Shown piece after piece: positions 6,153 through 53,428 of a stretch of DNA of 64,000 nt. How positions within the stretch are numbered: position 1 is the first letter of the stretch; every line of letters starts with the position of its first letter. This DNA comes from Clostridia bacterium. GTDB lineage: Bacteria; Bacillota; Clostridia; Christensenellales; UBA1242. The DNA lies in the NCBI GenBank assembly GCA_009929275.1, contig SAAW01000001.1, positions 26,924 to 90,923 on the forward strand. Reading direction: 5' to 3'. Position numbers and translations under genes: made by a program. Below the pieces are notes generated by a model, which worked only from the letters and a program-made list of their open reading frames with translations, searched no databases and was not told the origin of the DNA.

Positions 6153-6590
6153 TTACAATAGAAGTTGACTTTCATCTTCAAAATATTTATCCACATTATC
6201 CATCTGATGAACAATACAACTATCATCAATAAGAGAAGAATATGATTTTTTAATAAGTTCAACACCACCCTCATGGACATAAATCAATAAAAATAATGAT
6301 TCGCAATATCCGCCTTTAAACCCCAACTCTGAAGACTCAAAGAGCCCCTTTGAATATACCTTACCCTTCACAGAAACTGGAACAATAGGGAGTTCATCTG
6401 CTGTTTCAATTTTTTCCATTTCATATGAAAAAACTCTCTCTGCTTTTTTTTGAGTTGCAATTTTTTCCATTTCTTCTGTAATTTCTCCATCTGCACCTTC
6501 AAACGAAATGTCTGCAAATTTAAATTTTTTATCAATTCCAAATTTAACCGCTCTCTTAATATCATCATCACTAAAAAATTTCATTGTCAT
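6153..6590 (-). CDS. hypothetical acidic protein
   Basis: 145-aa ORF with coding-like composition. No recognisable motif. Confidence 0.45.
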   Translation of the reverse strand: MTMKFFSDDDIKRAVKFGIDKKFKFADISFEGADGEITEEMEKIATQKKAERVFSYEMEKIETADELPIVPVSVKGKVYSKGLFESSELGFKGGYCESLFLLIYVHEGGVELIKKSYSSLIDDSCIVHQMDNVDKYFEDESQLLL

Positions 6591-6677
6591 TTTTTTTCTC
6601 CTAAAAAATTTATAATTTGATTATACACCCATAAAATTTGAATTTCAAGATGCAAAATTAAAAATAATAAATAAACG

Positions 6678-6706
6678 TTGACATTTTGCCAAATTCATAT
6701 TAAAAT
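6678..6706 (+). promoter_or_regulatory. SigA-type promoter for tRNA-Lys
   Basis: TTGACA (6678-6683), 17-nt spacer, TAAAAT (6701-6706). Lies about 70 nt upstream of the tRNA. Confidence 0.5.
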
Positions 6707-6778
6707 CAAACTCGCTAATTGAAATTGAAATTGAAATGTGTTAAACAATTGTGTTTTAATTCCACTAAAATTCCTTAT

Positions 6779-6854
6779 GGGCTGCTAGCTCAGCTGGTAG
6801 AGCAGACGACTCTTAATCGTAAGGTCCGGGGTTCAAACCCCCGGCGGCCCACCA
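6779..6854 (+). tRNA. tRNA-Lys (anticodon CUU)
   Basis: Cloverleaf folded by hand: acceptor GGGCTGC/GCGGCCC, D-arm GCTC..GAGC, anticodon loop CT-CTT-AA, T-loop GGTTCAAAC and an encoded CCA. Confidence 0.9.
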
Positions 6855-6863
6855 GAATTATAA

Positions 6864-6887
6864 GAGGCATTTTGCCTTTTATTTTTT
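6864..6887 (+). terminator. rho-independent terminator after tRNA-Lys
   Basis: Stem gaggc / gcctt with loop atttt, followed by a T-rich tract. Confidence 0.45.
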
Positions 6888-7105
6888 AGAGTTTTTTGCA
6901 AAACTAAAATTGTTATTAAAAATATATTTGCTGACAAAAATGTTTTTGAATTATAAAACCCTCTCATTTTATAATCAATTTCGCTTTAAAAATCATCTAT
7001 AATCGTCACAAAATGATTTATACAAAAAATTATTTTGCCAAAAGATAACATTGTCCTTTTAAAAATCTCATAAATATAGTATAATAAATTATAGGAGATA
7101 AAAAA

Positions 7106-7531
7106 ATGACAACTAACACAAAGAAAACATTATTTATCGTTGCAGATATTTTTGCAATAATAACAGGTGTAGTCCTTATTTTTGGGATAATCACAATTCC
7201 TTTTTCAGTGTTTCTTTTTATGGGCGGTTCAAAGATGAGAGAAATCTCAAATCAAAGCGAAGTCGAATTTGAAAAAACTTTGAAGAATAGAACAAATTTA
7301 AGTTGGGCAATCTACATTCTGATCTTGACATTCCCTGTTGGGATATGCGCACTTTTGCCATACATAATTGACACAGTCCCCCAGAACAATGAAAATAAAA
7401 AATCCACAAGTGAAGTTTCAGATAGCGTTAAAGATTTGGATATACTATTTGAAAAGAAAGAGAAAGGCATCATATCCGAAGAAGAATATGAAAAATTAAA
7501 AAGAAAGATTTTAGACAAAATAGAAAAATAA
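7106..7531 (+). CDS. membrane protein with C-terminal SHOCT-like domain
   Basis: 141 aa, GGAG RBS and two TM helices. The C-terminal LFEKKEKGIISEEEYEKLKRKILDKI matches the SHOCT short C-terminal motif. Confidence 0.6.
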   Translation: MTTNTKKTLFIVADIFAIITGVVLIFGIITIPFSVFLFMGGSKMREISNQSEVEFEKTLKNRTNLSWAIYILILTFPVGICALLPYIIDTVPQNNENKKSTSEVSDSVKDLDILFEKKEKGIISEEEYEKLKRKILDKIEK

Positions 7532-7597
7532 TTAATAAAAAAGTTTTGATAAAACCTTTTTGTATTAAAATAAAAAAAAGGAAGAAAAATATAATAT

Positions 7598-9217
7598 ATG
7601 AAATTTACAGAATTAGGATTAAGTCCCAAAATTTTAAAAGCGCTTGAAAGTTTTAACTTTGAGACGACAACCCAAGTACAAGAAGAGACTATCCCTTTAA
7701 TATTAGAGGGAAAAGACGTCACAGTGAGAAGCCAAACAGGCAGTGGGAAAACACTTGCCTATGCTTTGCCAATTCTCCAAAACACAAGCGAAATTGCAGA
7801 AAATATTGAGACCCTCATCATTTGCCCCACAAGAGAACTGTGCTTGCAAGTTACAGATGAAATCAAAAAAATAGTGGGATTTTTGGAAAGCATTAAAGTC
7901 GTGCCAGTCTATGGCGGAAGTGCAATTGAAAGGCAAATTCAGGCTTTAAAGCGAAGACCACAGATAATTGTGGGGACTCCGGGCAGAATTATGGACCATA
8001 TGGGAAGAAGGACAATTAAGATTGAAACTCTGAAAACTTTGGTGCTAGATGAAGCAGACGAAATGCTTAATATGGGCTTTAAGGAAGACATTGAAAAGAT
8101 ATTAAAATCGACTCCAAAGACAAGACAAACTTTACTTTTCAGTGCAACATACCCTGAACAAATAAGGCAAATTACAAAAAATTATCAAAACAACCCAATA
8201 AAAATTGAGATTGGAGTTGAAAATAGAAGTCTAAAAAGTCTTACTCAATACTATGTTATTGTGAACAAAAACAGTAAAAAAGAGGCTTTGCTTGAAATTT
8301 TAAACGAGAAAAAGCCAAAAATAGCAATCGTTTTTTCAAACACAAAGAGAATGGCAGACATAATTGCAAACTATTTGAATGAAAATTCTCACAACTCTGA
8401 GGCGCTTCACGGCGACTTGAAGCAATCTCAAAGAAAAAAAGTCATCGACAGAGTTAAAAGAGGGGAAACAGAAATACTCGTTGCAAGTGACGTCGCAGCC
8501 CGTGGGCTTGACATAAACGACGTTGAATATGTCATCAATTTTGACGTTCCTCTTAATGTTGAAAATTTTATTCATAGGATTGGCAGAACAGCAAGAATTG
8601 GCAAAAATGGAAACTCAATGACAATCATTGCAAGCAATCTTCAACTAAAATCCTTAAAAGATTATGAAAGACAAACCGACTCAAACATTCAAGAAATGCA
8701 ACTTTCCATAACTGAAAAAGCGGGCTCTTCAAGTCAAATTGAAGTCAAAAAAAGCACTCGCTCAGGTGGATTTTCAAGAGGCAGACAAGGTGTGTCGCAA
8801 TCAAGAGGAAGCCGAAGTTTCAGCGAAAGAAGACCAATGAATAGAGACAAATCTTCAACGCAAAGAACCGACAGGGGCTTCTCTTCAAAGGAAAATGGGG
8901 ATTCAAACGGACAAAAAAGAAGATTTGACAGAAATAAGAACTTTTCAAACGGCAGAAATTCAAGAGCGTTTACTCGCGACGACAATGAAGAAAATGAGAT
9001 TCGTTCCAACAATCAAGAAAGAAGTTTTTTTGAGAAAAATTTTGAAAATAAAAAGGAAAAGCCAAGATTTGAAAAAACTGACAAAAAACCTTTTTCAAAA
9101 TTTTCAGATAAAAGAAACAACAAAGATTTTTCAAATTCTTCAAAGAAGTCAAATTTTTCAAAACCTTATGAGAAAAAACCATACAAAGCAAAACCTTTCT
9201 CATCAAACACAAAATAA
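7598..9217 (+). CDS. DEAD-box ATP-dependent RNA helicase with long basic low-complexity C-terminal tail
   Basis: 539 aa. Q-motif region, Walker A SQTGSGKT, PTRELC, VLDEADEML, SAT, ARGLD and HRIGRTAR motifs. The C-terminal about 165 aa are rich in R, K, S, N and F. Confidence 0.92.
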   Translation: MKFTELGLSPKILKALESFNFETTTQVQEETIPLILEGKDVTVRSQTGSGKTLAYALPILQNTSEIAENIETLIICPTRELCLQVTDEIKKIVGFLESIKVVPVYGGSAIERQIQALKRRPQIIVGTPGRIMDHMGRRTIKIETLKTLVLDEADEMLNMGFKEDIEKILKSTPKTRQTLLFSATYPEQIRQITKNYQNNPIKIEIGVENRSLKSLTQYYVIVNKNSKKEALLEILNEKKPKIAIVFSNTKRMADIIANYLNENSHNSEALHGDLKQSQRKKVIDRVKRGETEILVASDVAARGLDINDVEYVINFDVPLNVENFIHRIGRTARIGKNGNSMTIIASNLQLKSLKDYERQTDSNIQEMQLSITEKAGSSSQIEVKKSTRSGGFSRGRQGVSQSRGSRSFSERRPMNRDKSSTQRTDRGFSSKENGDSNGQKRRFDRNKNFSNGRNSRAFTRDDNEENEIRSNNQERSFFEKNFENKKEKPRFEKTDKKPFSKFSDKRNNKDFSNSSKKSNFSKPYEKKPYKAKPFSSNTK

Positions 9218-9262
9218 ATTTTTATTTTTATAAACAAAATGTAACTTAAAATAATAGTTTAA

Positions 9263-9290
9263 AAAAAACAATCTTTACCGATTGTTTTTT
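9263..9290. terminator. bidirectional terminator between the convergent helicase and flippase genes
   Basis: Stem aaaaacaatc / gattgttttt with a 6-nt loop. An A-run precedes it and a T-run follows it. Confidence 0.5.
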
Positions 9291-9296
9291 TATTTT

Positions 9297-10859
9297 TTAA
9301 TTCTTTTTTAGTTTTAAAAGCGAAATTAACCACTGAATTGCTTGCTTGAATTCTGGCATCCAACACAGGCATAGAAACAAGACAATATTTGGCAAAACGG
9401 CACAAATTGCAAATTTGGCAACTAAAAGCAAAATCGTTCCGTTTGGGACAAACGAGCAAACAAACCAAGTCACAAGCCCTGCCGTTAAAGTTGCTCCCGC
9501 GTAAATCAAATATTTCCCCATATAAACAAAGGTTGATTTTTTGAAATAATATTTATTAAGAACGTGTGGCGCAACCCATAAAGGCATAAGAATTGTGCTT
9601 AAAATTGTCCCCAAAATTATCCCAGCCAGACCAATCCAAAGACCTAGCAAAATTGACGCAACTAAATTTATCGCAGACTCTATAATCGCACTAAATCGCC
9701 AAGGGTGAAACAGCCCTGCCGTCTCCAAAAACACCCCTGTCAAATATCTTGAATATGTTAAGAAAAAACTGACGCTAACCAATAGAACAATTTCATTCCC
9801 AAGCAACAAATTTACACTTGACGATTTTGTCAAAATGACAGATATAAAAGGCCCTGACAAGACAAAAATACACACAGCACAAAACCCTACAATCCAGAAA
9901 AAAACAAAATTGAGTTTTTCACGGAGCCTAAAATTATCCTCGACAGATTGAGTTGCGATTGAATTGCCAACACTGCCCCTGATAGAAGAAATTAACAGTG
10001 CAATTATTGCCCCAACATATGTGGTGATGAGAATGTAGTTTGAATATTTTCCAAGCGTGTCCAGCCCATTAATTAATATCATACTAATTAGAATGCTGTC
10101 AGTTCCAAAAACAATGACCCCACCAATTTTATGAAAGACCATTGCAATAACATTTTTCTTAATCTCTTTTTTTGTTTTAAAATCTAACTCTTCGCTTGGT
10201 TTTCCCAAATAATTCCTATATTTTTTTTGGGTAATAAACCAAACTAAAAAATTATTAAGAATTGTTATAAAAATCCCCACCGACAAATAAAAGTAATAAT
10301 CTTTTATGGTAAACAATATCAAAAGTTGCAAAATTGTCGAGGTTATATGTGCAATAATATTGATTTTTGACTCAATGTCATTTCGCTGACTGGTGTATAA
10401 TAGCGCCCTGCGGTGAGCAAAAAAATATGACATTGTCGTGTTCACAAGAAGAATTAAAAACACCACCTGCAAATTCACACTGACTGCCGGTGTTCCATTA
10501 ATTAATAGATGCACGAATGGTGTCAAAGCAAGCCCAATCCCAAGAACAACAAAGCCAACGACTAAATAAAACTTTTTGTAAAGTTCCAAAAATTGTTTTA
10601 CTTTCTCTTCATTTTTCTCCGCCATCGGCTTATACATTGCAAAAATAATTGCCGAGCCAAAGCCAAGTTCCGCTAAAGACAAAATGCTTAAAACATTTGA
10701 AAATAAGGCAGTGAGTCCAAGATATTCAGCACCAATAAAATATATAAAGTATCTTCGAACTATAAAGCCTAAAATAACTTGCAAAACATATGCAATAAGT
10801 GAAAATAAAATATTATTTAAAGACCTTTTCGTCCTAGTTTCCACAACTTGTGCCATCAC
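9297..10859 (-). CDS. oligosaccharide/polysaccharide flippase (Wzx-like, MOP superfamily)
   Basis: 520 aa and about 14 TM helices. The N-terminal NILFSLIAYVLQV..GAEYLGLTALFSNVLSILSLAELGFGSAIIFAMYKPMAEKNEEKV is typical of the polysaccharide-biosynthesis flippase family. Confidence 0.75.
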   Translation of the reverse strand: MMAQVVETRTKRSLNNILFSLIAYVLQVILGFIVRRYFIYFIGAEYLGLTALFSNVLSILSLAELGFGSAIIFAMYKPMAEKNEEKVKQFLELYKKFYLVVGFVVLGIGLALTPFVHLLINGTPAVSVNLQVVFLILLVNTTMSYFFAHRRALLYTSQRNDIESKINIIAHITSTILQLLILFTIKDYYFYLSVGIFITILNNFLVWFITQKKYRNYLGKPSEELDFKTKKEIKKNVIAMVFHKIGGVIVFGTDSILISMILINGLDTLGKYSNYILITTYVGAIIALLISSIRGSVGNSIATQSVEDNFRLREKLNFVFFWIVGFCAVCIFVLSGPFISVILTKSSSVNLLLGNEIVLLVSVSFFLTYSRYLTGVFLETAGLFHPWRFSAIIESAINLVASILLGLWIGLAGIILGTILSTILMPLWVAPHVLNKYYFKKSTFVYMGKYLIYAGATLTAGLVTWFVCSFVPNGTILLLVAKFAICAVLPNIVLFLCLCWMPEFKQAIQWLISLLKLKKN

Positions 10860-10932
10860 TTCTCTCTTTTAGTTTCTAATTATATAACTAAAATATTTTT
10901 CTAATATTTTTTAATTTAAGTTTTATTGACAC

Positions 10933-10970
10933 ATTACATAAAAAATTATTTCCTGCATTTTTTATGTAAT
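10933..10970. promoter_or_regulatory. perfect 14-bp inverted repeat in a divergent promoter region
   Basis: attacataaaaaat (10933-10946) and attttttatgtaat (10957-10970) are exact reverse complements separated by 10 nt. A TTGACA hexamer sits immediately upstream. Confidence 0.35.
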
Positions 10971-11182
10971 ATCACTTTTTAAGTATACTCATTTGAAGTT
11001 TTGGGTCAACTTAATTGGGCTTAAAGCATAAATTAATAAAATTAATTTGAATGAGAAAAATGCAATTTTAAGAATATAATATTTTAATTTTATAATTATA
11101 ATTATAAATAAAATTTTACAATATTTTAAAAAAGTATTTTTAATTAAAAAATTTTTTATGTATAATAAAAAGAGGTGAAAAA

Positions 11183-11821
11183 ATGTTATTTGGAAATGAA
11201 ATCTATAAAGGTCTTGCCGATTTGGCAAACAATTCCGTCAGAAGTATGGAAAATTTTAATTGGACTTTCATTGCAATTTTTGCGTTTGTCATCTATGTTT
11301 ATGCAGTTGAGATTAAAAAGAAAAATTATAAAGCAATTGTCGCAGGTTTGTCGCTCTATTCGGTTCACTGGTTGTGCGAAATTATAAACGCCATCATCGG
11401 TCGCGTTTCGGGCTATGCTTTATGGACTGTTTCCGCCGAAAGCACATCTTATGTTCTTCTCATCGGCGTAAGTTGGGAACTTTCGATGATGTTTGCAGTG
11501 GCTGGAATTATAACAAGCAAATTCTTGCTTAAAGACAAAAACGCAAAAATTCTTGGGATAAACAACCGCTGGTTTTTCGCGATTGCAAACGCCCTTATGT
11601 TTTCACTAGTTGAGATTTTCCTCGCTGCCACACCTGCTTTCATTTGGGTCTATCCATGGTGGGGTGCAATTCCTGTGTTTATAACAGTTTACATTCCTTT
11701 CTTCCTTGCCGCTTTTATTGTTCCCGACAAGAGTCCAAAATTTCAAAAAATATTTTTAACTAGTATAATATCCCTAAACATCATTTTACTTGCCACATTA
11801 ATTCCTCTGGGGATAATATAG
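11183..11821 (+). CDS. polytopic membrane protein, unknown function
   Basis: 212 aa, AGAGGTG RBS and about 6 TM helices. Confidence 0.5.
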   Translation: MLFGNEIYKGLADLANNSVRSMENFNWTFIAIFAFVIYVYAVEIKKKNYKAIVAGLSLYSVHWLCEIINAIIGRVSGYALWTVSAESTSYVLLIGVSWELSMMFAVAGIITSKFLLKDKNAKILGINNRWFFAIANALMFSLVEIFLAATPAFIWVYPWWGAIPVFITVYIPFFLAAFIVPDKSPKFQKIFLTSIISLNIILLATLIPLGII

Positions 11822-11841
11822 TATAGATTAAACTTAATTTC

Positions 11842-11885
11842 AAAAAAAAGACTAGCAAAATTTTTGTTAGCCTTTTTATTTTTAA
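11842..11885. terminator. terminator hairpin between convergent genes
   Basis: Stem ctagcaa / ttgttag (one wobble on the + strand) flanked by an A8 run and a T-run. It could serve the 11183 gene and the minus-strand operon that ends at 11930. Confidence 0.4.
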
Positions 11886-11929
11886 AACAAATTTATTAAC
11901 ACATAGTTTTTAAAATAATTTTAAAAAAT

Positions 11930-12145
11930 TTATCTTTTTTTATGCAAGAAAAGATATGTTAAAATAAAAACGACTGCAACGAAATTAATGGCACAAACGG
12001 CGTATGTGAAAAAGTTAAAATATATGTTAAAGACGACGACTTTGGCAACGACAAGCATTGTAAAAATTAATAAAAAAATTAAGTATATTGCGTCAATCCC
12101 ACCAATGCACAGAGCAACAATCTTTTTCCACTTTTCGCTATTCAA
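11930..12145 (-). CDS. small two-TM membrane peptide (last gene of the RF-like/helicase operon)
   Basis: 71 aa. TTG start overlaps the upstream stop codon by 8 nt. Two clear hydrophobic helices and a basic C-terminus. Confidence 0.4.
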   Translation of the reverse strand: MNSEKWKKIVALCIGGIDAIYLIFLLIFTMLVVAKVVVFNIYFNFFTYAVCAINFVAVVFILTYLFLHKKR

Positions 12146-14033
12146 AATACACCCCCAAATTTTTTATATCTGAAATTGAAGACATAGAAATCACGACTTG
12201 ATTGCCAGTCGAAGAATTTGTGCCAGTGTCATATCCAAACACATCATAAGAATAGACAGAACTATTTAAAACCATAACTCCAATTTGTTTTTCCACACTT
12301 TCACTTGTCAAAACATAGTTATTACTGCCGTTTATATATTGAATATTACTCAAATACCAAATACTGCCAAAACTCGCTCCCACATAGTTTTTTGTTTCAT
12401 CAAACGCAGTCACAAAAGTGGCAAGAGAAAAGCACTCTGTGAGTTGCCCATAAAAATGCCCGGCAATTCCTCCCACATATGCCTTTGCATTTTCTCCTGC
12501 GGTTACCACTGAAATCTCACCCTCCTGCCCGCAATTTTGCAGACACACAACAGTCAAATCATAAAAGTTATACGCCACAACTCCCCCACAATAGACAGAC
12601 AGAGTATTTGTCGTCACTTCAATGTTGCCCACATTTTTACTCAATTTTATTATTCCTTCATTTGAACCAACAATTCCTCCACAAATTGCAACTGCGGTGC
12701 TTGCCTCACTAAAAGTTGATGTGACTTTAAGCACTCCCACATTTCTGCAAGAGTTAATTTCTCCATTATTAATCCCAACAATGCCTGCAACCGTTGGCGA
12801 CCAATTATCTTCGTCGCTCGTTTGAGTTAGACTTGCATTGTTTGTGCAATTTTCCACTTTTCCACCTGAAATGTTGCTTGCAATAATTCCTGAAACGTCC
12901 ACTTCCAAAGCGTCAATCACCGAAGTCGCAAGAACGGAGCAATTAAAAATTATCCCGCTATTTTTACTCGCAATACCACTTACGTTCCCGTCACCAGTCC
13001 CGCTTCCAGAAATGCTTATTGATAATAAAATATTGCAATTTTTAATCTCGCCACTATTTGTCACTGCAAATCCTGAAAAATAACTGCCGTTTGTGTTTTT
13101 CTCAATGTTGATTGCAATTTTATCAGTCAAATCCTCTCTAGCAAACTCAATCTCCACATTTGAAATTGTGCCAGAATTTGTGCCACAAAGCAAACTTGAG
13201 GAAGACGAAAGTGTTGTTTCTTCATTAAAATTTTGATAGACAATTTTCAAATTTTCAATTGTCCCAGAGTTGTTTTCAATCAAATTTTTCCCATCATAAT
13301 TCACATAAATCGTGTGCCCATTCCCGTCGATTTCACCAGAAAAAGTGTCTAAAAATTGACTGTTTGAAAGGGTTAAATCATTCTGCAAAACTGCACTGCA
13401 ATTGCTTGATAAAGCACTCACAAATTGCGAACTTGAATATACTTTCGCTTGTAAAAAAGCCACACCTCCAAGAGTGAAGTCAATCGCCGTCATAGCACCC
13501 ACCAAACAAAAAATAAAGATAGAAAAAATCATTAGACAACGCTTTAAAAAACTTTTTTCTTCTTTTGAAATAATTTTTAGTCCAACTTTAATTTTGCCAT
13601 TTTTAAAAGAGATATCTTGCCCATAAAAAGTCGAATAAATCTTTGTTAAATTTTTTGTTATTATGTCGTTTATATATGCAAATTTATAAACTTTTTCAAG
13701 CCTGCCATCAAAGTGTAAAATTGCGAGCATTTCAAGTGGAGAGATGATAGATTCATCAGAAAAATATAACCTCACGCTCTTTTTTGCGTAGTTTTTAAAA
13801 TCTTTATAAACAGAAAATGGCTCGCTAACTCTTTCAAAATTATTAATTCTCAAAAGTTTTCTTTCAAAATTTTTAATGATTTTTTTTGCATTATAAAGAT
13901 AACATATGGATAGAATTGGAAATCTTCCAAAAGAAATATTGAGCAATTTTTCTTGACTAAACAGTTGCGAAAAAAAAGCCAAATCGTCGCGTTTGATTGT
14001 TTCTATAATTTCTCTTTCTTTTTCTTTCTCCAC
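12138..14033 (-). CDS. single-pass membrane protein with extracytoplasmic GLUG-motif-like beta-helical repeats
   Basis: 631 aa. GTG start 8 nt after AAGAGG. About 165-aa N-terminal soluble region, then one TM helix (CLMIFSIFIFCLVGAMTAI), then repeated units such as GIVGINNGEINSC, GGIVGSNEGIIKLS and GGIAGHFYGQLTEC. Confidence 0.6.
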   Translation of the reverse strand: MEKEKEREIIETIKRDDLAFFSQLFSQEKLLNISFGRFPILSICYLYNAKKIIKNFERKLLRINNFERVSEPFSVYKDFKNYAKKSVRLYFSDESIISPLEMLAILHFDGRLEKVYKFAYINDIITKNLTKIYSTFYGQDISFKNGKIKVGLKIISKEEKSFLKRCLMIFSIFIFCLVGAMTAIDFTLGGVAFLQAKVYSSSQFVSALSSNCSAVLQNDLTLSNSQFLDTFSGEIDGNGHTIYVNYDGKNLIENNSGTIENLKIVYQNFNEETTLSSSSSLLCGTNSGTISNVEIEFAREDLTDKIAINIEKNTNGSYFSGFAVTNSGEIKNCNILLSISISGSGTGDGNVSGIASKNSGIIFNCSVLATSVIDALEVDVSGIIASNISGGKVENCTNNASLTQTSDEDNWSPTVAGIVGINNGEINSCRNVGVLKVTSTFSEASTAVAICGGIVGSNEGIIKLSKNVGNIEVTTNTLSVYCGGVVAYNFYDLTVVCLQNCGQEGEISVVTAGENAKAYVGGIAGHFYGQLTECFSLATFVTAFDETKNYVGASFGSIWYLSNIQYINGSNNYVLTSESVEKQIGVMVLNSSVYSYDVFGYDTGTNSSTGNQVVISMSSISDIKNLGVYFE

Positions 14034-14044: not shown

Positions 14045-14758
14045 TTATTTTTTTGTTTTAACTTTTCTAATCTCTGCCCATTTGTCCAAAATATCGAAAA
14101 TATATACTTCATTCACATCGTCTTTTTCCACAATCTTTTTTAAAAGCACATTATTTTTTTGATATTCTTGCACCAATTTTTCGATGCTTTCTTTTTCTTC
14201 CAAAAGAGTTTCAAAAACACTTTCATTTTTGTCTTTAATGAGAGATATCTTCTCACCACTCTGCTTCAAACTTTCCGACACGTCATTATTGATATATTCG
14301 CTCACTTTTTCAACCCCAATGTTATATTCTTCAAGGTTTTTTTGAAGTTGCTTAATGTCATAATTTTTCTTTTTTTCCTCGATGAGAGCGTCAAGTTTTT
14401 CAATTTGCTCTTCGGCCTTTTTTTCTATTTTATTTGCAAGAGTTATTCGTTCTTCCACTTTTTTAAGCGCCTCTGTCACGCCATCAATTGCAGTCAAATA
14501 TATTTTTGTCTTATCCGAAAAATTATTAATCTCACTTGCCAAACTTTTTGATTTTTCTGCTTGAAGCGACAAATCTTCAAAAATTTTGCCCAATTTTCCT
14601 TGAATATCTCCACCAAAAGTGGAATTAAGATTTTTTATGTCATCTTTCATTCCCTCAAAAGCCGACGAAAATTCGTTCAAATTTTGTGCAATTGGAGTTA
14701 TCAAATCCCTATAACCCCTGAATGCGTCCACCAAATCTTTAATTTCATTATTTTCCAT
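14045..14758 (-). CDS. coiled-coil protein, unknown function
   Basis: 237 aa. The start overlaps the helicase stop by 11 nt (AAATGGAAAATAA). E/K/L-rich with long heptad-like stretches and no TM helix. Confidence 0.55.
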   Translation of the reverse strand: MENNEIKDLVDAFRGYRDLITPIAQNLNEFSSAFEGMKDDIKNLNSTFGGDIQGKLGKIFEDLSLQAEKSKSLASEINNFSDKTKIYLTAIDGVTEALKKVEERITLANKIEKKAEEQIEKLDALIEEKKKNYDIKQLQKNLEEYNIGVEKVSEYINNDVSESLKQSGEKISLIKDKNESVFETLLEEKESIEKLVQEYQKNNVLLKKIVEKDDVNEVYIFDILDKWAEIRKVKTKK

Positions 14759-17204
14759 TTTTGTCTCCCACCTTTCTAAAATTTTCTTTAATTTCTTTCA
14801 TTTGTTGTCTTAAACTTTCCCTGTCATTTTCAATCGTTTTAAGAATTAATTCTTTTGCGACCTGATTTTCCTTTATGTCATCAAAATAGTTCACAATATC
14901 TATGCTTAATCTGCCCTCTTCCTTGCCCCTGCAAGCGTCAAGCAGTTGCGAAAGGGCTTCGTCACCAGACAATATAAATTGATTTTTTGCCTCTTTAAGC
15001 ATATTTAATTCCCAAAACTTCACGCCAGCATCTCGATGTTTTCCAAGTTGAATATATTTTTCATTAATGTCAATGCGACTGAGTTCTCGAATTCTCACCA
15101 CATCGTCTTTGATCTTATTTGCCGTCCACACTGCGTTTTCAAATTGCCCCAATTTGATAAATTCCTGCACTCGTTCCAAAATCTCGCTTTCAGTGAATTC
15201 AACCCTGCTCACAATGTCGCTCAAAAGTTTAATGGCTCCCGTCGTATCTTTTTTGTCAAAATTTTCCTCAAAAAAGTTTTCAAAAATAGGAATTTTCTTA
15301 TTTTCCACAACAAATAGATTCTGCTTTGCACGAGTGAGTCCCACATAAAAAAGGTTGTAATAATATCTATACACACTGTTTTCGTCTGCTTGTTTGTGAT
15401 TAACCTTATTACTTTGCAATGTCTGCCAACGCTCAATATTATCCGAAAGTAAATTATACGCCACAACCGTATTCCTCTCCAAGCCTTTAATCTCGCTGAC
15501 CGTCAACACTTCTTGATTTTTAAGCAAACTTTGAAGTTCCTTCTTTTTGTCGCTACTGCACACCACAAAAGTAAAGTTATCAAAACTACTCCCCGCAATT
15601 CGCCTTGCAAAATCGTCGTCAAACACGCACACAGTGGTAGTTTTAAGCCCCGTGTCGATGCTCTCTCCCTCCACAACAAAATTATGTGTGCCAAAAAGAT
15701 TTTTGTTGATTTCAGAAAGAGAATTGATAACTTCCTCAATCTTTTTTGTGTTCCTAAAATTCGCTTTAAGTTGTTTCACACAGGTCTCATCTTTCAAATA
15801 GAGGAGATTTTTGAGATATCCAAAATTAAAAAACGAAGGATTAATCATCTGAAGGGCATCGCCCACGCAAAAAAGTTTTATTGCAAGGGCTCTAAATAAG
15901 CACAGATTGGCTTGAGAAAAATCTTGCACTTCGTCCAAAATCGCAAGCGAATATTCTTCAAAGTCCTCTTTTTTCTCGATGAGTTCTCTTGAAGCACTGT
16001 TTAAATCAACAAGCCCTTGTCTTTTCAAAAATTCTCCATACTCACGAGCAATTTGATAGATAACTTTGCAATCTTCTCTCGAAAAACTGTCCGCTCTTTT
16101 TGAGATATAATCTTCTTCAAAAAGCATTTCATTTGTGTTTTCAATCTCGAAATTACCAAAAATCATTCCAAAAATTTCTTTATAAATAACCTCCTTGGAA
16201 TATCTCTCAATTTTTTTAAATGCTTTTGTCATCTGGTGATTACCACCGTTTTTGACAAAGTTTTTTAAAAAAAATCTCTCATCTGCAAAGAGTTTGTCGG
16301 CATCAATCTTTTTTCTGTATAAATCTTCAATCAAAAAATAGTCCACTTTATTTCCCAAAAAGTCGATTATTTTGTTTATTTTATCAAAAATCTTCTCGTC
16401 ATCATCGCTAAAAAAATATATCCCAAATTTGTTTTCAAGTGCTTTCTTGTGGTCGTCGTCCACAAAAATCACATTGTTTTTCTTCCTTGCGTTTTCAAAA
16501 TCCACCAAATCATTTTTAAACGATTCAACCTTTAACTTAGTATCCATCAAAAGTCCACGAGAGTAGGTCGAATAAAGCACTTTCCCGCCATAATTTCTGC
16601 AGGAAGAAAAGATAATTTTGTCGATGCAGACATTGGTTTTTCCGCTTCCCGCCACCCCTTGGACGAGAACATTTTGGTCCATTGTCTCCACAATTTCTTT
16701 TTGCTCTTTTGTCAGTTTTGGCAGATTGACGCCTGAGGAATTAGACAATAAATATAGTTTTTTAAAATCTTCTTTTTTCACAAGAAATTTAGTTTTTTGA
16801 ATTGTTTCGTTCACAAAAGTATGAAGTTTTAAATAGTCGTTTAATCTTTGGTCGTTTTGCCTAATTTCTTTTTTCCCTGCTTCATAGTCGAAAAAAACAA
16901 TATCTTTTTTGTTAAGCCCAGCAACTTGAAATCCAAATTTCAAAAGGAAACGAAATTCTTTGTCATCTGTTTCCAGTGAAAAACAATTCACAAAATCTTC
17001 ACTTTTTGTGTTTTCGTTTAAAAATATTTCGCTAAAATTCCTTATGAGCCCCTCAGCAAGTTTGCTCACAAAAAAATCAACATTGGAGATGTATCTCGTC
17101 TTTTTCAAAAAATTTTCGGTTTTATATAAGCAACTCTCGCTTGAAAGCACAATCTTTTGTGTGTCGACGCGGATTTTAAGAGAATTTTCAATCATTGCCG
17201 TCAC
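14748..17204 (-). CDS. SF1 UvrD/Rep-like helicase family ATPase with novel N- and C-terminal extensions
   Basis: 818 aa. Walker [12 protein letters not shown], motif [30 protein letters not shown] and [14 protein letters not shown]. Start is GTG at 17204 or ATG at 17195; both overlap the upstream stop. Confidence 0.75.
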
Positions 17205-18042
17205 CGCTAAAAAGTTTTTCTAACAAATAGTCCTCTTCAAAATTATAAAGCCTTCTAACTTTACCTTGCTCCATCAGTTTGTTTTGTTCTTTTTTAAGTC
17301 TTTTCAACTCGTCAAAAGCCAACTTTTCATAATGTTCTTTAACCTTTTTGACGAGGAGTTCCATAGCGATGTTTTTGTTTTGAAGTTGCGTCCTTTCAGT
17401 TTGGCAAGCACAAACAATTTTTGACTTCAAGTGAGTTATTCTCACTGCCGTCGCCACTTTGTTGACATTTTGCCCGCCCGCACCTGAAGAATGATAGATG
17501 TCAATCCTCAAGTCACCATCTTTAAAGTCAAACTCCTGCTTTTTTGAAGACTTATAGACAAAGACGAGAATGTCTTCACTATTTTTCTTTTGCACACCTC
17601 TATGCCTGCCAATTTCTCTGCTAAATCTCTCAAATGCACCAAAGCCCACAATATCAAAAACAGTGTTTTCATTATTTTCGATAGAATATTCAAACTCCTG
17701 TTCTTTGCATATTTTTTCAAAATATTGAATGAGTAAATCATAAAGAAAAAACGATTTGTTTTTGCACACAATCTCCACTTGAACACTCTGTTTTTCATTG
17801 TTAAACTTAAAGAGCAGTTTTTGGAGCATAGTCTCCAGTTCGTCGTTTTCATCTCCTGTGCCACTTTCAATTTGAGTGGAAATATCGACAATAGCTTTCA
17901 TTTTTGCGTTTTCCTTCATAAGCCTTGTGCAAAGGATTTTGTCGCACAACACTTCCTCATAAGTCAAAAGTTCACTATTGTGATTATATTTCTTCAAAAT
18001 AACCTGCAATTGATTTTTTTCTTCATTGTTTAATTTTTTCAT
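17188..18042 (-). CDS. class-I peptide chain release factor homologue (GGQ retained, codon-recognition motif degenerate)
   Basis: 284 aa. [40 protein letters not shown] aligns to RF1/RF2 domain 3. The upstream region aligns loosely to the PCRF domain, but neither a PxT nor an SPF tripeptide is present. Confidence 0.75.
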
Positions 18043-18178
18043 ATTACACTAAAAATGATACAACATTTTTCTTTTCTTTTCAATCAATTATATGAAGTTT
18101 AAAAAATATCCAAAAAAGTTTTATGGTTGTTTTTAAAATAAAATTTACACAACAAAAAAAATAGGCTAAACTAAGCCT

Positions 18179-18721
18179 ATGAGAATTATATCAGGAAAAT
18201 ATCGGGGAGTTACAATACCTTCGCCAAAGGAAGATATCGTCCGTCCCACGCTCGACAGAGTGAAAGAAAATATCTTTAATATTTTGCAATTTAAGGTGAC
18301 AAACAGCCTTTGTCTCGACCTTTTTTGTGGAAGTGGTGCCTTTGGACTAGAATGTCTTTCAAGGAATGCACAAAATGTTGACTTTGTGGACAACAATAAA
18401 AATAATATTTCGGCTCTTAAAAAATTTTTGGAAAAACTAAACGCAAAAAATTTTATGCTTCACAATTGCGGTTTTTTTGACGCCTTAAAAAATTTTTCAA
18501 ACGACAAAAAATGCTTTGACATAATCTTTCTTGACCCACCCTTTGACAGCAATTTCGCAAATATTGCTATTCAAAAGATTTTTAAACTAAATCTGCTTTC
18601 AAAAGACGGGGTAATCATCTGGGAACACGAAAATAATGTCAAAAATGACTATGCTTTTAAAGTATTTGACACACGGACATATGGAAGAATTGTCATCGAT
18701 TTTCTCTCAAACAAAGTTTAA
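18179..18721 (+). CDS. rsmD: 16S rRNA (guanine966-N2)-methyltransferase
   Basis: 180 aa. MRIISGKYRG..., SAM-binding motif DLFCGSGAFGLE, and FLDPPF. Confidence 0.82.
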   Translation: MRIISGKYRGVTIPSPKEDIVRPTLDRVKENIFNILQFKVTNSLCLDLFCGSGAFGLECLSRNAQNVDFVDNNKNNISALKKFLEKLNAKNFMLHNCGFFDALKNFSNDKKCFDIIFLDPPFDSNFANIAIQKIFKLNLLSKDGVIIWEHENNVKNDYAFKVFDTRTYGRIVIDFLSNKV

Positions 18722-20110: not shown

Positions 20111-20680
20111 CTATTCTCCCAAAATGACTGGCTGAATTTGCCTATTTTCGACGGCTTCTAAAATTGTATCCAAAAGCAAATCCCATTTTGCAATCATTGA
20201 TTTTGGCTTATTTGTTGGATTATCCTGACCAAAAGGCACGAAAAACACATTCTTTTCATTGATTAATTTTGCAATGTTTTGAAGATTAAGCCCCAAGGCA
20301 TCGTTTGTCGAAATGCCGATGACAAGCGGTTTGTAATTTCTCATATGAGCTTTTGCCGACATCGTCACAGCATCATCGCTAAGCCCATTTGCAAGTTTTG
20401 AAAGCGTGTTTCCTGTGCAAGGCGCAACCACCAAAACATCAATGGCGTTTTTTGGCCCGAGAGGCTCTGACTCAACAATGTTTGTGATGACATCTTTCCC
20501 CGTCAATGATTTGAGCCTATCCAAATAGTCCTGTGCATTCCCAAATCTTGTGTCTATAAGTTTCACTTCTTCAGTCACTATTGCAGTCACATTGTGCCCT
20601 GCTTTGACCAAAGTCTCAATCTGCTCAAAAATTTTATTATATATGCAAAACGAACCCGTTATTGCTAGCCCAATATTCAT
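20111..20680 (-). CDS. spoVFB: dipicolinate synthase subunit B
   Basis: 189-aa flavoprotein-fold protein (MNIGLAITGSFC..., PCTGNTLSKLANG). It overlaps the upstream subunit A gene by 4 nt. Confidence 0.78.
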   Translation of the reverse strand: MNIGLAITGSFCIYNKIFEQIETLVKAGHNVTAIVTEEVKLIDTRFGNAQDYLDRLKSLTGKDVITNIVESEPLGPKNAIDVLVVAPCTGNTLSKLANGLSDDAVTMSAKAHMRNYKPLVIGISTNDALGLNLQNIAKLINEKNVFFVPFGQDNPTNKPKSMIAKWDLLLDTILEAVENRQIQPVILGE

Positions 20681-21426
20681 TTATATTCTCCTATCATAAT
20701 TTCATTAAAAATAAGTTTTCCTGCGGAAAAGGGCATATATTTTGCTGGAAGTGAAGGGCATAAAATGTAATTCACCTGCTTAATATTATTTTCATTTAAG
20801 CACTTTTTTGAAGCCAATTCAAACACATTTGCCCCTTTTTTAAAGAAAGAGTCGTCGCTAAAAAGTTCAATAGGGATTGTGTTTATAACAGTGTCATAAT
20901 CTTTCAAATTCTCAAAAATATCTTTAAGCAAAAAACTTTTTTTTGAGACAAGTTCACTCAAAAAACACTCTTTTTCATCTCTCATTGAAACATCAAATTT
21001 AACTTTTAAGTCGTGCAAAACTTGCCACACAGCCTTTGCCACTCTTCCATTGCCCAAAACCAAAATATTTTGTTCATAAAGCGATTTTTTTGTGTTAGAT
21101 ATCAAATCTGCCAAAAAAGCCTCCGCCGTCAGCCTTGCATTTTCCACAACAAAACGCTCATTTTCCATAAGATTTATATAATTTATTCTCTCTTTTTCAG
21201 CAAAAAATTCTTCTGCCACCGCTCCGCCAAAAACCGTTGTTCTGTCTTTCAAGAGAGACAAAGTTTCTTTTTTCCACCTGTAAGATGGCGACACAACACA
21301 CACATCAAAAGAGGAGATTTTCTCAATATTTTCTTCAAAGTCAAAAACATTCAGTCCCCTCTCCTCCAGCATAGTTTTCACTTCCAAAAGTCGTCTGTCT
21401 TTCAGATCCAAAAAATAATTTTTCAT
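20677..21426 (-). CDS. spoVFA: dipicolinate synthase subunit A
   Basis: 249 aa from the ATG at 21426, preceded by an AGGGAG RBS. The ORF track begins at 21441. Rossmann motif VLGNGRVAKAV. Paired with spoVFB. Confidence 0.68.
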   Translation of the reverse strand: MKNYFLDLKDRRLLEVKTMLEERGLNVFDFEENIEKISSFDVCVVSPSYRWKKETLSLLKDRTTVFGGAVAEEFFAEKERINYINLMENERFVVENARLTAEAFLADLISNTKKSLYEQNILVLGNGRVAKAVWQVLHDLKVKFDVSMRDEKECFLSELVSKKSFLLKDIFENLKDYDTVINTIPIELFSDDSFFKKGANVFELASKKCLNENNIKQVNYILCPSLPAKYMPFSAGKLIFNEIMIGEYK

Positions 21427-21580
21427 TTTTCTCCCTTTCAATTCACTTTATGCAGGTTTTTGCTTCCTTGTGAAAACTTTTTTTGGAAAAATATCATTTA
21501 TTAATTTGTTTAAAATAAAAAAACTTCTCTGACAAATGAGTTAGAAAAGTTTTTAATATTAAAATAAGCATAATTTGTTT

Positions 21581-34647: not shown

Positions 34648-35136
34648 TTATACGCTTAGTTTTTGAATGACTAAATTCACATTCTCAAAAGTTGCACCAC
34701 TTCCACTATTATTTCTAAGGTTGATAATGGTGTTTGTCATTGTGTTGTTATAGATAAAACTGGTGGATAAGTGCGTTGGCAATCCCGCTGTCGCAAACGC
34801 CGAACTCAAACTTATCGCCACATTGCTCCCGTCTGCGGTTATTTTCAGCCCCACAATTCCGCTTGCCGTTCGAAAAGCATCTGCATCATATGTAATCAAA
34901 TAATATCCGCCTGTCGCCAGCGTAACATCAGCAGTCCCCGAAGTATGAATGATGTCTTCTGCGTCGAAATTGACATTATTAAGAAGGGTAATCGCAACAT
35001 CGTTACCAATCTCCTCGGTGTTTAAGTTATAAAAATCTGCAATCCTGTTTAATCCGCTTGGTCCCCTAGGTCCTGTTGCTCCCTTTGCACCTTTGCAAGG
35101 GTCATATGTCGAACAAATACAATTACAACAATTCAT
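34648..35136 (-). CDS. small Cys-rich, short collagen-like protein with a BclA-C-terminal-like (C1q/TNF-like) domain
   Basis: 162 aa. N-terminus MNCCNCICSTYDPC, four GXY triplets (GAKGATGPRGPSG), then a beta-rich domain ending NVNLVIQKL, as in the paralogues at 51892-54351. Confidence 0.6.
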   Translation of the reverse strand: MNCCNCICSTYDPCKGAKGATGPRGPSGLNRIADFYNLNTEEIGNDVAITLLNNVNFDAEDIIHTSGTADVTLATGGYYLITYDADAFRTASGIVGLKITADGSNVAISLSSAFATAGLPTHLSTSFIYNNTMTNTIINLRNNSGSGATFENVNLVIQKLSV

Positions 35137-40598: not shown

Positions 40599-42809
40599 TT
40601 ATTTCATAAGATTTTCTAAATATTCCTTAATTTCAATCAATTCTTCAATCATCGTTGACGCCCCGCCAGTCAACCCAATTTTTGTTTTGCTCGAAAGTTT
40701 AATTTCTTTCAAACAGTCTTTCACTTCATTAATGTTTTCCACAAAATATGCTTTTGTGTGTTTGCTAACATTATCAAAAAGTTCCTTTGTGTTGCTTGAA
40801 TTTTTCCCGCCGACGACAAACATAATATCCACTTCTTTTGCCAACTCCACAGAACTCAAATTAATTTCTTTTTGAGCGTTGCAAGTGGTGTTTTTATATT
40901 CAAACTGCTTTCCAATTTTTTCAAATTTTTCTTTTAAAATTTTGATTATTTCAACTGCAAGCGAATAGGAAAAAGTGGTCTGAACGACGAGATAATAACT
41001 TTCAAAGTGAGTATCAATTTTTATTGCATCTTCCTCGTCTTCCACAAAAAGGGGTTTATTACAATACCCTGCCGTGCCCAAAACTTCAGGGTGCATTTCC
41101 CCGTTTTTTTTGCCATATTTCCCGACTATAATAATCTTTTTGCCCTCAGTTTCTTTCATCTGAACAAGTTTATTTATTGCCTTAACATTCGGACAAGTGC
41201 AATCCAAATATTTGATGCCTTTGTTTTCAAAAAATTCAAAGGTTGATTTTGGCTCACCATGTGCACGAATGACAGCAATATCATCACTCTTAAAATCAGT
41301 TAAATTTTGATATTCACTCACTCCAAGATTTGAAAGTTCACTGACAACTCGCTTGTTGTGAAGAAGTTCCTTATAAAGCACTATATTCTCTCTAACATTC
41401 GCACTATCTTTCACCATAGAAAATGCTCTGTTTGAGCCATAACAAAGACAGCATTTTTGTGCAATATAGACGCTTTGTTTTTGGTTTAACTCAATTGACG
41501 ACAAAAGTAAAAGCGTTATGATATAAATAAAAATATCCATAGTCGCCGCTTGGTCGGTTATCCCGGAAAGTTCAATAAGAATGATGATGCCGATTAAAAA
41601 GAAGTTTGATTTATTATATTTTTTGAACATAATTTGATATTTTTTGAAGTAAAAATAACAAATCAAAACTGTTCCGACAATTCCAAGAGTTGTGAGAAAT
41701 TGAAGAGGGGTGTTGTGAGCCATAACGACTTTTGTCTCTAGTTCAAGGGACGGAATATTCTCTGTCGTGACAAAACCATAGCCAAAAATAGGATTTTGCA
41801 AAAACTTTTCAAAACACCACGTCCAAAGATCCGATCTGCCAAGATTAAAATTGTTTGTAAATCTGCCAATAAAAGATTCAATAAGAGGATATATATTATC
41901 GATAAAAATGACACAAAACAAAAATAATATTGAAAAAATCAATATGAAAGTTATTAAAAATTGTCGCTTATTCTTTGAATTTTTAACCATAATTATGGTG
42001 AAAAAGATTAAGGGTAAAAAAGATAGTAAAATCATCATTCTGGAATATGTGAAAAAAACCATAAGGGTAAAAAACAAAGATAGCAAAAAATATAAATAGT
42101 CATTTTTCTTTTTATATCCAATGGCAAATGAAGCAATCATTCCCATAGTTAAAAAAAGCGCTACAACATTTATGTTTTGTGAGCCAATTCTATAACAACG
42201 CCTTTGAATTATAGACAAGACAATATCGTCGCTTGACAAATGAGTGAAAAGAAGTTGAACTGAAATGAAAATTGCTCCACAGAGAAAAAGATAGAGGAGA
42301 TATTTTTTCAAATCTTTGCAGAAATTGATTGACGTCCAATAGAAAAAATAGGAAACAAGGCAAAATCCCAAAACGACAACTGATGTTAAAATGTTGAAAT
42401 TACCAATAATTCCACCCAAAAGATAGGCAATGTTGGCGACGACAAGTGGCCAAAACAATTTGCCTTTTTTAAGTGGAGTCTTAAACTTTTTGCTTTCAAT
42501 TAGTTTTTTGACAACAAAATAGATGATTGATATGACAACTATACCTATGCACGAGCCATAGACAACCCAGTTTGCGACTGAATAGAATATGTATTGCACA
42601 AAAAAATGAATGTAGAGAATTGGAGCAAAGGCGACTTTAACATCTTCACAAAAGAAGAAAACAAAGCAGACATATATCGCAAAAACGCACACTGTTATGC
42701 CAACAAAATCAATTGCCCAAAAAAACACTGCAAAAGCGAATAACGCAGGCATCGACCATTTTGATTGAACTAAAGACTTAATTTTATTTAGCACCATTAA
42801 AATTTTCAC
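40599..42809 (-). CDS. ispH: fusion protein: N-terminal O-antigen-ligase/Wzy_C-like polytopic membrane domain plus C-terminal 4-hydroxy-3-methylbut-2-enyl diphosphate reductase (IspH/LytB)
   Basis: 736-aa continuous ORF. The first about 455 aa contain about 12 TM helices with a large loop (AHNTPLQFLTTLGIVG). The C-terminal about 280 aa carry all the IspH landmarks: CLCYGSNRAF, LHN, RAHGEP, DCTCPNV, HPEVLG, VVQTT, NTTCNAQ, GGKNSSNTKEL and GGASTM. Confidence 0.75.
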   Translation of the reverse strand: MKILMVLNKIKSLVQSKWSMPALFAFAVFFWAIDFVGITVCVFAIYVCFVFFFCEDVKVAFAPILYIHFFVQYIFYSVANWVVYGSCIGIVVISIIYFVVKKLIESKKFKTPLKKGKLFWPLVVANIAYLLGGIIGNFNILTSVVVLGFCLVSYFFYWTSINFCKDLKKYLLYLFLCGAIFISVQLLFTHLSSDDIVLSIIQRRCYRIGSQNINVVALFLTMGMIASFAIGYKKKNDYLYFLLSLFFTLMVFFTYSRMMILLSFLPLIFFTIIMVKNSKNKRQFLITFILIFSILFLFCVIFIDNIYPLIESFIGRFTNNFNLGRSDLWTWCFEKFLQNPIFGYGFVTTENIPSLELETKVVMAHNTPLQFLTTLGIVGTVLICYFYFKKYQIMFKKYNKSNFFLIGIIILIELSGITDQAATMDIFIYIITLLLLSSIELNQKQSVYIAQKCCLCYGSNRAFSMVKDSANVRENIVLYKELLHNKRVVSELSNLGVSEYQNLTDFKSDDIAVIRAHGEPKSTFEFFENKGIKYLDCTCPNVKAINKLVQMKETEGKKIIIVGKYGKKNGEMHPEVLGTAGYCNKPLFVEDEEDAIKIDTHFESYYLVVQTTFSYSLAVEIIKILKEKFEKIGKQFEYKNTTCNAQKEINLSSVELAKEVDIMFVVGGKNSSNTKELFDNVSKHTKAYFVENINEVKDCLKEIKLSSKTKIGLTGGASTMIEELIEIKEYLENLMK

Positions 42810-52842: not shown

Positions 52843-52846
52843 TTTG

Positions 52847-53428
52847 TCACAACTTTTGTATCACAATGTCTGCTTGCACGAGTGAAGTCGCAAGAATAAC
52901 TGTATCTCCTGTGTTGTTGACCAAAGACAAAGTTGCGGGAACGCTCCCCACATCAAACAGCCCTTGCCCATATAATTCCAAAGTTGTCAATCCTGTTGGC
53001 GATGAAGCCGAGATTGATGTCGCTCCACTTTCTGCACTGAAAATAACGCTCGTTGACTGGCTCGCTCCATCAACATTAACCCACCAATTAACTAAATATC
53101 TGCCAGGTGCGTTTAGAGTGAAAATTCCAGTGGTGTCATCATACGTTATCTCGCTTGATGTGTTCAAGAGAACTGTGTCAAAAATGATATTTGCACCGTC
53201 TAAAATTGCTCCCTCACTATTATCCTGCAATTGTGCCTGAATGGACGTCAAAACCACAGGAGGTGGATTATTTATAATTGAAAAATGCGAACAGCCACGT
53301 TTTGATTCTCTAAAACAATCTGGATAGTAATTATCACATTTTGACTCGTGACAATGCTCGCAACATTTGTCGAAATGAGGCTTGTGACAAGGCTGGCAAC
53401 ATAGACTGCAACAATTAAACCTATTCAT
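52847..53428 (-). CDS. Cys/His-rich N-terminal domain plus BclA-C-terminal-like domain protein
   Basis: 193 aa. The N-terminal 47 aa contain 12 Cys and 5 His (NCCSLCCQPCHKPHFDKCCEHCHESKCDNYYPDC). The C-terminal domain reads IIFDTVLLNTS..GIFTLNAPGRYLVNWWVNVDG..ADIVIQKL. Confidence 0.6.
   Translation of the reverse strand: MNRFNCCSLCCQPCHKPHFDKCCEHCHESKCDNYYPDCFRESKRGCSHFSIINNPPPVVLTSIQAQLQDNSEGAILDGANIIFDTVLLNTSSEITYDDTTGIFTLNAPGRYLVNWWVNVDGASQSTSVIFSAESGATSISASSPTGLTTLELYGQGLFDVGSVPATLSLVNNTGDTVILATSLVQADIVIQKL

Follow-up and report, generated by a model that had tools for sequence, protein, structure and literature searches.

A putative codon-blind relative of release factor 1 at the head of a four-gene helicase cassette in gut Clostridia

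The stretch of DNA considered here (the window) comprises 64,000 nucleotides from the metagenome-assembled genome (MAG) of a Clostridia bacterium of the order Christensenellales (contig SAAW01000001.1, positions 26,924 to 90,923). Its minus strand carries a cassette of four genes, which encode, in order: a protein resembling a peptide chain release factor (RF), here called the RF-like protein; a UvrD-like ATPase of helicase superfamily 1 (SF1); a helical protein of 237 amino acids (aa); and a single-pass membrane protein. The four genes are tightly and translationally coupled, with overlapping start and stop codons: the RF-like stop overlaps the helicase start at ATGATTGA; the gene for the 237-aa protein (14045..14758) overlaps the stop of the helicase gene (14748..17195) by 11 nt; and the gene for the 631-aa membrane protein (12138..14033) starts 11 nt past the gene for the 237-aa protein. 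The RF-like gene is an open reading frame (ORF) for 284 aa, running from ATG to TGA at exactly 17188..18042; its product matches NCBI entry NCB48023.1, ‘MAG: peptide chain release factor-like protein [Clostridia bacterium]’, exactly. A candidate promoter (TTGAAA, 17 nt, TATCAT; 18055..18083, minus strand) was found by a consensus scan, with 10 of 12 positions matching, and is a pattern match only. Its -10 element ends only 13 nt short of the RF-like ATG, without an obvious Shine-Dalgarno sequence. In close homologues, the annotated N-terminus is 9-15 residues longer; therefore, the true start of the RF-like protein, and with it the leader, is uncertain.

Pfam recognizes one domain in the RF-like protein, RF-1 (PF00472; E 1.5e-28, 99.5 bits against a cut-off of 35; residues 169-270). 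Within it lies the GGQ tripeptide (G189 G190 Q191, codons GGC GGG CAA, 17470..17478), the mark of a class-I RF. The PCRF domain (PF03462) finds no match in the Pfam search at E up to 1, and distant members of the family match it faintly or weakly at best. Curated family models tell the same protein apart from its known relatives: it scores 101.0 and 101.7 bits with the RF1 models TIGR00019 and NF001859 (equivalog cut-offs 423 and 400), 97.1 bits with the prfB model TIGR00020 (370), 72.8 bits with the prfH model TIGR03072 (166.65; the match is confined to domain 3) and 44.5 bits with the ArfB model NF006718 (100). All of these scores lie far under the cut-offs; therefore, the protein falls outside each of the four bacterial RF families described so far. 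Its ancestry is nevertheless plain on these comparisons. The nearest solved protein is RF1 of Streptococcus mutans (E 7.6e-24), and all 111 of the 111 closest matches outside its own nine-member family are RF1 or RF1-like, with RF2 accounting for 0. Judged by such matches, the RF-like protein descends from RF1 and is closest to RF1 of the Firmicute/Chloroflexi type, and the homology is far past chance.

What was kept and what was lost in this descent can be read from alignments. A profile-profile run of hhalign, with 14 RF-like against 22 canonical RF1 sequences, aligns all four RF domains (probability 100%, E 3e-66, 291 columns), as does MAFFT; in both, the gaps sit exactly at the decoding elements. 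At the tip of helix alpha5, AGTGGEEA of RF1 has become CKNKS, with a 3-residue deletion. The stretch VQRVPxTExxGRIHTS of RF1, which holds the PxT loop and the RIHTS strand, is represented by GVQKKNSED, with 8 residues deleted and the remainder unrelated; the place is taken by a beta-hairpin (aa 145-164, 17551..17610). The SPF tripeptide of RF2 does not occur in the sequence. Domain 1 (aa 1-83, 17794..18042) is a three-helix bundle, by alignments and the secondary structure of the model; it has some 45 residues fewer than in RF1 and retains an RF1-type motif. The DRVTDHRIG segment and the C-terminal helix of RF1 are both lost, and domain 2 (aa 84-165, 17548..17793) is degenerate, and hypervariable across the family. 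Retained are a switch-loop-like KVRRLYNF segment, the sheet of domain 2/4 and, above all, domain 3 (aa 166-260, 17263..17547), the peptidyl-tRNA hydrolase domain with its long alpha7 helix, which is 48-56% identical to that of Firmicute RF1. By alignment, all three stop-codon-reading elements are lost: the alpha5 tip, the PxT loop, and the Q, T and I residues of the RIHTS strand. A preliminary description of this DNA, made by eye, had reported an RF paralogue with the GGQ domain kept, no PxT or SPF tripeptide, CKNKS in place of AGTGG, a shortened domain 1 and a truncated C-terminal helix; the profile searches and both alignments bear out each of these observations, and neither alignment reveals an intact PxT or SPF motif.

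The structure predicted with AlphaFold2 (AF2) has RF architecture (predicted local distance difference test 82.9). At the position of the RF1 recognition loop, the model has a 2-residue turn (aa 152-153) between strands 145-151 and 154-164. A Foldseek search with the model places ribosome-bound RF1, RF2 and mitochondrial mtRF1 on top (~4 Å over ~230 residues), with PrfH clearly weaker. The four-domain scaffold would be able to span the A site.

The gene is maintained by selection. The ratio of non-synonymous to synonymous substitution (dN/dS) between the RF-like gene and two relatives is 0.09 and 0.19, and lies at 0.12-0.20 in the degenerate N-terminal half and 0.03-0.13 in domain 3, all rough values with dS near saturation. 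Purifying selection follows from these ratios, and not a decaying gene. The wider family was collected by scanning one genome per GTDB species with an alignment of the helicase; this gave 252 matching stretches, the best 80 of which supply the locus counts used below. GGQ is present in 77 of the 77 RF sequences of these loci (76 RF-like, and the canonical RF1 found at one locus, L065), and the HRVQRVPxTE block in 0 of the 76 RF-like sequences. The recognition hairpin is hypervariable across the family and 5-12 residues shorter than in RF1. Mean pairwise identity among the 76 members is 0.46 for domain 3, 0.23 for domain 2, 0.25 for domain 1 and 0.25 for the C-terminus; the corresponding values for canonical RF1 are 0.65, 0.68, 0.36 and 0.68. 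Outside domain 3, only M1, E30, D34, G133 and G145 are conserved in at least 90% of the RF-like family, which leaves it without a conserved alternative reading head. A profile search of 1.84 billion representatives extends the pattern: among the 144 best new representatives (clusters at 50% identity), GGQ is present in all 144 and the canonical motif absent in 137. The family thus comprises at least ~145 such clusters, query members included. No fusion of an RF-like gene to a partner gene was found. Two proteins of ~480 aa labelled ‘RF1’ in the representative search (P0242 and P0243) are internally duplicated canonical RF1, most likely assembly artefacts of public metagenomes.

The stop codons of the window bear on whether the protein could be the RF1 of its host. 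The 54 ORFs of the window end in TAA (35), TAG (12) or TGA (7). An alternative genetic code or a missing RF was considered and rejected, as all three stops are in use and no suppressor tRNA was found in the 64-kb window. Use of TAG as a stop requires a real RF1. A direct case of coexistence is provided by the L065 contig, which carries a canonical prfA (1108-2178; 356 aa, HRVQRVPETESQGRVHTS) 4.8 kb upstream of the cassette as well as an RF-like gene (6988-7995). Co-occurrence was also sought through five RF1 matches from a search with the L065 RF1 (P0403, P0415, P0406 and P0392 among them), none of which falls in an assembly listed as having the cassette; L065 is the only direct case. Related Christensenellales have an ordinary prfA in the context rpmE, DUF1385/PrmC, prfA, thrC. 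The proposal that this is a paralogue is strengthened accordingly by the two RF genes of L065 and the 12 TAG stops of the window; these gene arrangements support the view that the RF-like gene behaves as a paralogue of RF1.

The partners are less familiar. The 815-aa helicase is assigned by Pfam (UvrD-helicase, 1.8e-9); its helicase motifs, Walker A and Walker B among them, are intact, and GDxxQMINP and YVGxTRA are invariant in the family. The N-terminal domain (~aa 1-160) is novel and rich in beta structure, whereas the C-terminal domain (~aa 650-815) is helical. The best Foldseek matches of its AF2 model (predicted template modelling score 0.82) are UvrD, PcrA and Rep (template modelling score ~0.45, 11-14% identity). 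A HelD-like or Upf1-like identity is less favoured: the Foldseek scores are poor, the root-mean-square deviation is large and both rank behind UvrD, PcrA and Rep; these comparisons give the helicase no specific assignment. The 237-aa protein is all-helical (coiled-coil or bundle), and the family alignment displays a conserved basic C-terminal tail, DKWAxxRKVKTKK. The membrane protein was assigned from hydropathy, positive-inside analysis and alignment. Its transmembrane helix (~aa 165-192, 13458..13541; Kyte-Doolittle) is conserved in position in 74 family members; the N-terminus is inside, and the cytoplasmic domain of ~160 aa contains invariant GRFPxLS and SPxEM. The extracellular part is repeat-rich and beta-helix-like, with sub-threshold matches to Pectate_lyase_5 and Glug, and varies in length, the family ranging from 605 to 1082 aa. 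Searches of Pfam, NCBIfam and PDB are uninformative for the 237-aa protein, for the cytoplasmic domain of the membrane protein and for the N- and C-terminal domains of the helicase.

The cassette travels as a unit. All 80 loci come from gut MAGs (human, mouse, ruminant and bird) that bear the label Christensenella, Christensenellales or Clostridia, and the only gene families that recur among them are the four of the cassette, in 80, 77, 74 and 73 loci (77 for the 237-aa protein and 74 for the membrane protein); the next flanking family is shared by 10 loci. Around homologues of 70, 54, 51, 34 and ~31% identity, the four genes recur in unchanged order, with different flanks. The RF-like ORF lies directly upstream of the helicase gene in 72 of the 80 loci; 2 loci are truncated, and in one further locus (L041), a 360-aa RF-like gene (14270-15352), also without the recognition loop, lies downstream on the opposite strand. 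One sub-clade has cassettes with no RF-like gene in the flanks (L027, L029, L031, L036 and L038); its membrane proteins are much longer, at 881-1006 aa, except for that of L029, with 636 aa. The helicase family as a whole numbers at least 827 clusters at 90% identity, whose members are named ‘hypothetical’ or ‘UvrD-helicase domain-containing’.

Gain or loss of the whole segment is evident in one pair of contigs, L065 and L091, which belong to sister species and are collinear, with flanks of 74-83% nucleotide identity. Between a 199-aa gene and PEPCK, L065 has the entire cassette in 7.3 kb (6183-13506), where L091 has ~0.5 kb of intergenic DNA (15318-15823). No convincing direct or inverted repeats flank the L065 insertion. 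A distant cassette, that of L007 (RF-like protein 34% identical), adjoins genes for a coupling protein of the TraG/VirD4 type, a protein of the PLD family and a protein of 4087 aa (L007:7056-9062 and L007:1-4319), a neighbourhood that suggests a conjugative element. An origin from phage or plasmid was considered and rejected: neither the 50,697 phage records searched with tblastn nor IMG/VR contain a match, and plasmids yield distant, generic UvrD matches only. PHROGs has generic RF-1 and helicase families only, and a fold search of BFVD finds only small phage proteins with a GGQ domain. A catalogued defence system was likewise rejected: PADLOC gives weak GajB-like matches (best 1.6e-11, over ~50 residues) and coiled-coil matches, with GajA absent, and its models have zero matches to the RF-like and membrane proteins. 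RtcB is absent from the cassette of the window and from related loci.

How might such a protein act? GGQ domains act only at the peptidyl-transferase centre, and every characterized relative hydrolyses peptidyl-tRNA there. All studied RF homologues that are without decoding motifs (ArfB/ICT1, PrfH and C12orf65) are rescue factors (PMC6514570). From these two circumstances we infer release that does not depend on a stop codon. The reading preferred here, with moderate confidence, is that the RF-like protein is a functional class-I RF paralogue derived from RF1, which would release nascent chains without need of a stop codon, on ribosomes chosen by their state, by the partners in the cassette, or by both. 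It would enter the A site and hydrolyse peptidyl-tRNA there whatever the codon. The logic of selection would be akin to that of ArfA or BrfA for RF2, or to that of the damaged decoding centre for PrfH beside RtcB. Remodelling of the associated nucleic acid, or movement along it, would fall to the SF1 ATPase, and the membrane protein would serve to anchor the complex or to control it. The preliminary description had arrived at the first part of this, an RF1-derived paralogue with GGQ kept and reading motifs gone, and that part stands; it had missed that the gene is the first of four. Given its place in the cassette, the protein is more likely to work as one part of a multi-protein system than as an ArfB-like factor on its own. 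A more elaborate proposal, offered tentatively and as a somewhat doubtful one, is that the four genes form a membrane-anchored system of a new, ribosome-directed class, for conflict or rescue, coupling a surface or envelope signal (through the variable, beta-helix-like extracellular domain) and the SF1 motor to a dedicated codon-blind RF, such that translation is aborted or rescued on command.

Several points weigh against release of this kind. RF accommodation normally requires codon recognition; a codon-blind RF may therefore be inactive unless a partner takes part. Ribosome binding, dependence on the partners and the physiological trigger are all inferred. Canonical RF1 sequences dominated the input alignment for AF2, which biases the model to the RF1 fold. 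In 5 of 78 informative loci, the genes for the helicase, the helical protein and the membrane protein are present and the RF-like gene is absent from the available flanks; the RF-like protein may therefore be accessory to the system rather than central to it. DNA helicases (UvrD, PcrA and Rep) are as similar to the SF1 ATPase as RNA helicases are, so that any link to mRNA or rRNA is conjectural. Finally, the 64-kb window of this MAG contains no other RF gene (prfA or prfB).

Other accounts make different use of the same evidence. The cassette might be an abortive-infection or conflict effector: the membrane protein, the SF1 ATPase or both would sense an invader, and the RF-like protein would then end translation prematurely on elongating ribosomes and so bring protein synthesis to a halt. 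Accessory gain and loss (the cassette in L065, ~0.5 kb of intergenic DNA in L091), flanks that vary among lineages, the single instance beside a TraG/VirD4 coupling protein, an extracellular domain that evolves fast (605 to 1082 aa) and the weak GajB-type helicase matches are what such a system might look like. PADLOC, however, has nothing for the RF-like and membrane proteins and only weak, generic matches for the others; the cassette was not found in collections of phages, viral contigs or plasmids; the flanks are housekeeping genes, and no other defence or mobile-element genes recur in the 80 loci; the L065 insertion is without flanking repeats; and literature searches show no RF-domain effector in any defence system. 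An effector of this kind is thus considered unlikely. Less probable again is action on the split large subunit, on 50S-peptidyl-tRNA, in the manner of mtRF-R/C12orf65 with MTRES1 or of Vms1, with domains 1, 2 and 4 serving as mere scaffolds for binding partners. GGQ proteins on split subunits have precedents (PMC6514570), and this account would make sense of a domain 2 that has no conserved decoding-centre residue, of a decoding half that is hypervariable while domain 3 is conserved, and of dependence on co-encoded partners. It leaves unexplained why the full-length RF architecture is kept, with the KVRRLYNF segment and the domain 2/4 sheet, which action on 50S alone does not need; the known 50S-acting GGQ factors are short, at ~140-170 aa.

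Two further accounts deny the protein a new activity. It could be a relic of a duplicated prfA, either a pseudogene in progress or a structural subunit for which catalysis is irrelevant. The lost motifs and shortened domains have that look, as do an evolution faster than that of the helicase neighbour (30% as opposed to 45-57% identity) and the absence of the RF-like gene from some cassettes; an intact ORF in 72 of 80 loci, conservation of GGQ and of the motif around it, dN/dS of 0.09-0.19, a family of at least ~145 clusters at 50% identity that all have GGQ, and translational coupling to the next gene make a relic very improbable. Hardly credible, finally, is a housekeeping RF1 whose lineage has found a new mode of reading stops, for all that TAG stops are in use and the 64-kb window has no other RF gene: L065 has a canonical prfA as well as the RF-like gene, and relatives keep an ordinary prfA in its rpmE-prmC-prfA context; the would-be reading head has no conserved residues in the family; and a sister species lacks the cassette and some cassettes lack the RF-like gene, which is impossible for an essential factor.

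The surroundings of the cassette in the window deserve brief mention. Divergent to it lies a gene for an rsmD-type 16S rRNA methyltransferase of the m2G966 family (18179..18721, plus strand; Pfam Cons_hypoth95, 4e-46). An rsmD gene adjoins the cassette in the four closest relatives (L001, L003, L005 and L011) and is absent beside more distant cassettes; the adjacency probably reflects synteny within the lineage and not a connection in function. Also near the cassette is a dipicolinate-synthase-like pair (20111-21441, minus strand), a flavoprotein-type B subunit and a 254-aa A-like subunit. Further away, a cluster of proteins with collagen triple helices and a BclA C-terminal domain (51892-54351 and 34648-35136) and a Cys-rich ORF (52847-53428) resemble surface proteins of the exosporium. 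The dipicolinate-synthase-like pair and the BclA-like genes suggest that the Christensenellales-type host forms spores. A 736-aa ORF (40599-42809, minus strand) joins a Wzy_C O-antigen-ligase-like membrane domain (aa 243-383) to a complete IspH/LytB (aa 447-728), an unusual fusion for an enzyme of the isoprenoid pathway.

The bacterial class-I RF proteins described so far are RF1, RF2, ArfB and PrfH only (2019 survey, PMC6514570). A description of the RF-like family, or of the cassette, was not found in full-text searches of the literature, and the names in databases are generic (‘peptide chain release factor-like’ or ‘PCRF domain-containing’). The helicase-linked, codon-blind RF-like proteins are proposed as a fifth family of RF type in bacteria, encoded in a new operon. 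Three traits would mark the family: a scaffold like that of RF1 in which GGQ is kept, a recognition hairpin that is shortened and variable, and a gene that immediately precedes the one for the ~810-aa SF1 ATPase of the four-gene cassette; the gene of the window and 72 of the 80 loci display them. ArfB is reported to be absent from Firmicutes (PMC6514570), which leaves a niche for a stop-independent hydrolase. If active, the RF-like protein would open a new stop-codon-independent route of peptide release in Firmicutes and would give a helicase and the cell envelope a part in ribosome rescue or abortion; the membrane-anchored arrangement, if true, would be the first such bacterial use of a class-I RF outside ArfB and PrfH. 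The family is also a natural experiment on what the RF scaffold needs for codon-free accommodation into the peptidyl-transferase centre. On the practical side, roughly 800 or more ‘hypothetical’ helicases and their partners are flagged as one functional module in the abundant gut Christensenellales, and the cassette reaches hundreds of species of gut and rumen Clostridia.

The cassette can be compared with several known systems. The 815-aa protein has the SF1A core fold and all ATPase motifs of UvrD, PcrA and Rep (GajB, HelD and Upf1 being functional analogues), and differs in having unique N- and C-terminal domains without matches in Pfam or PDB; Gabija differs in that its nuclease partner has no counterpart in the cassette. 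With RF1, the RF-like protein shares a clear common ancestry and a domain 3 that is nearly identical in the GGQ region; its gene sits in a helicase operon, whereas prfA has its rpmE-prmC-prfA context. With ArfB/ICT1, it shares the concept of a GGQ hydrolase independent of stop codons. ArfB, however, has ~140 aa, a GGQ domain and a basic, helical C-terminal tail with which it probes the mRNA channel when this is empty; the RF-like protein, at 284 aa, ends in acidic residues (GDGND) and also contains domains 1, 2 and 4. The ArfA-RF2, BrfA-RF2 and ArfT-RF pairs offer the example of an RF scaffold brought to stop-less ribosomes by a small co-factor, and the basic tail RKVKTKK of the 237-aa protein is reminiscent of channel-probing tails; those systems use a canonical RF, the cassette a dedicated paralogue, and homology between the partners was not detected. 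PrfH is likewise an RF paralogue with GGQ kept, domain 2/4 remodelled and the stop-codon motifs gone; its gene shares an accessory operon with that of an enzyme that processes nucleic acids, and its distribution is sporadic. Rescue by PrfH and RtcB is triggered by the state of the ribosome and not by the codon (PMC9304027, PMC6514570). The two differ in build and in company: PrfH, at ~200 aa, is without domain 1, which the RF-like protein keeps as an N-terminal three-helix domain in the model; and the partner of PrfH is RtcB, where the RF-like protein is joined by an SF1 ATPase and two further proteins.

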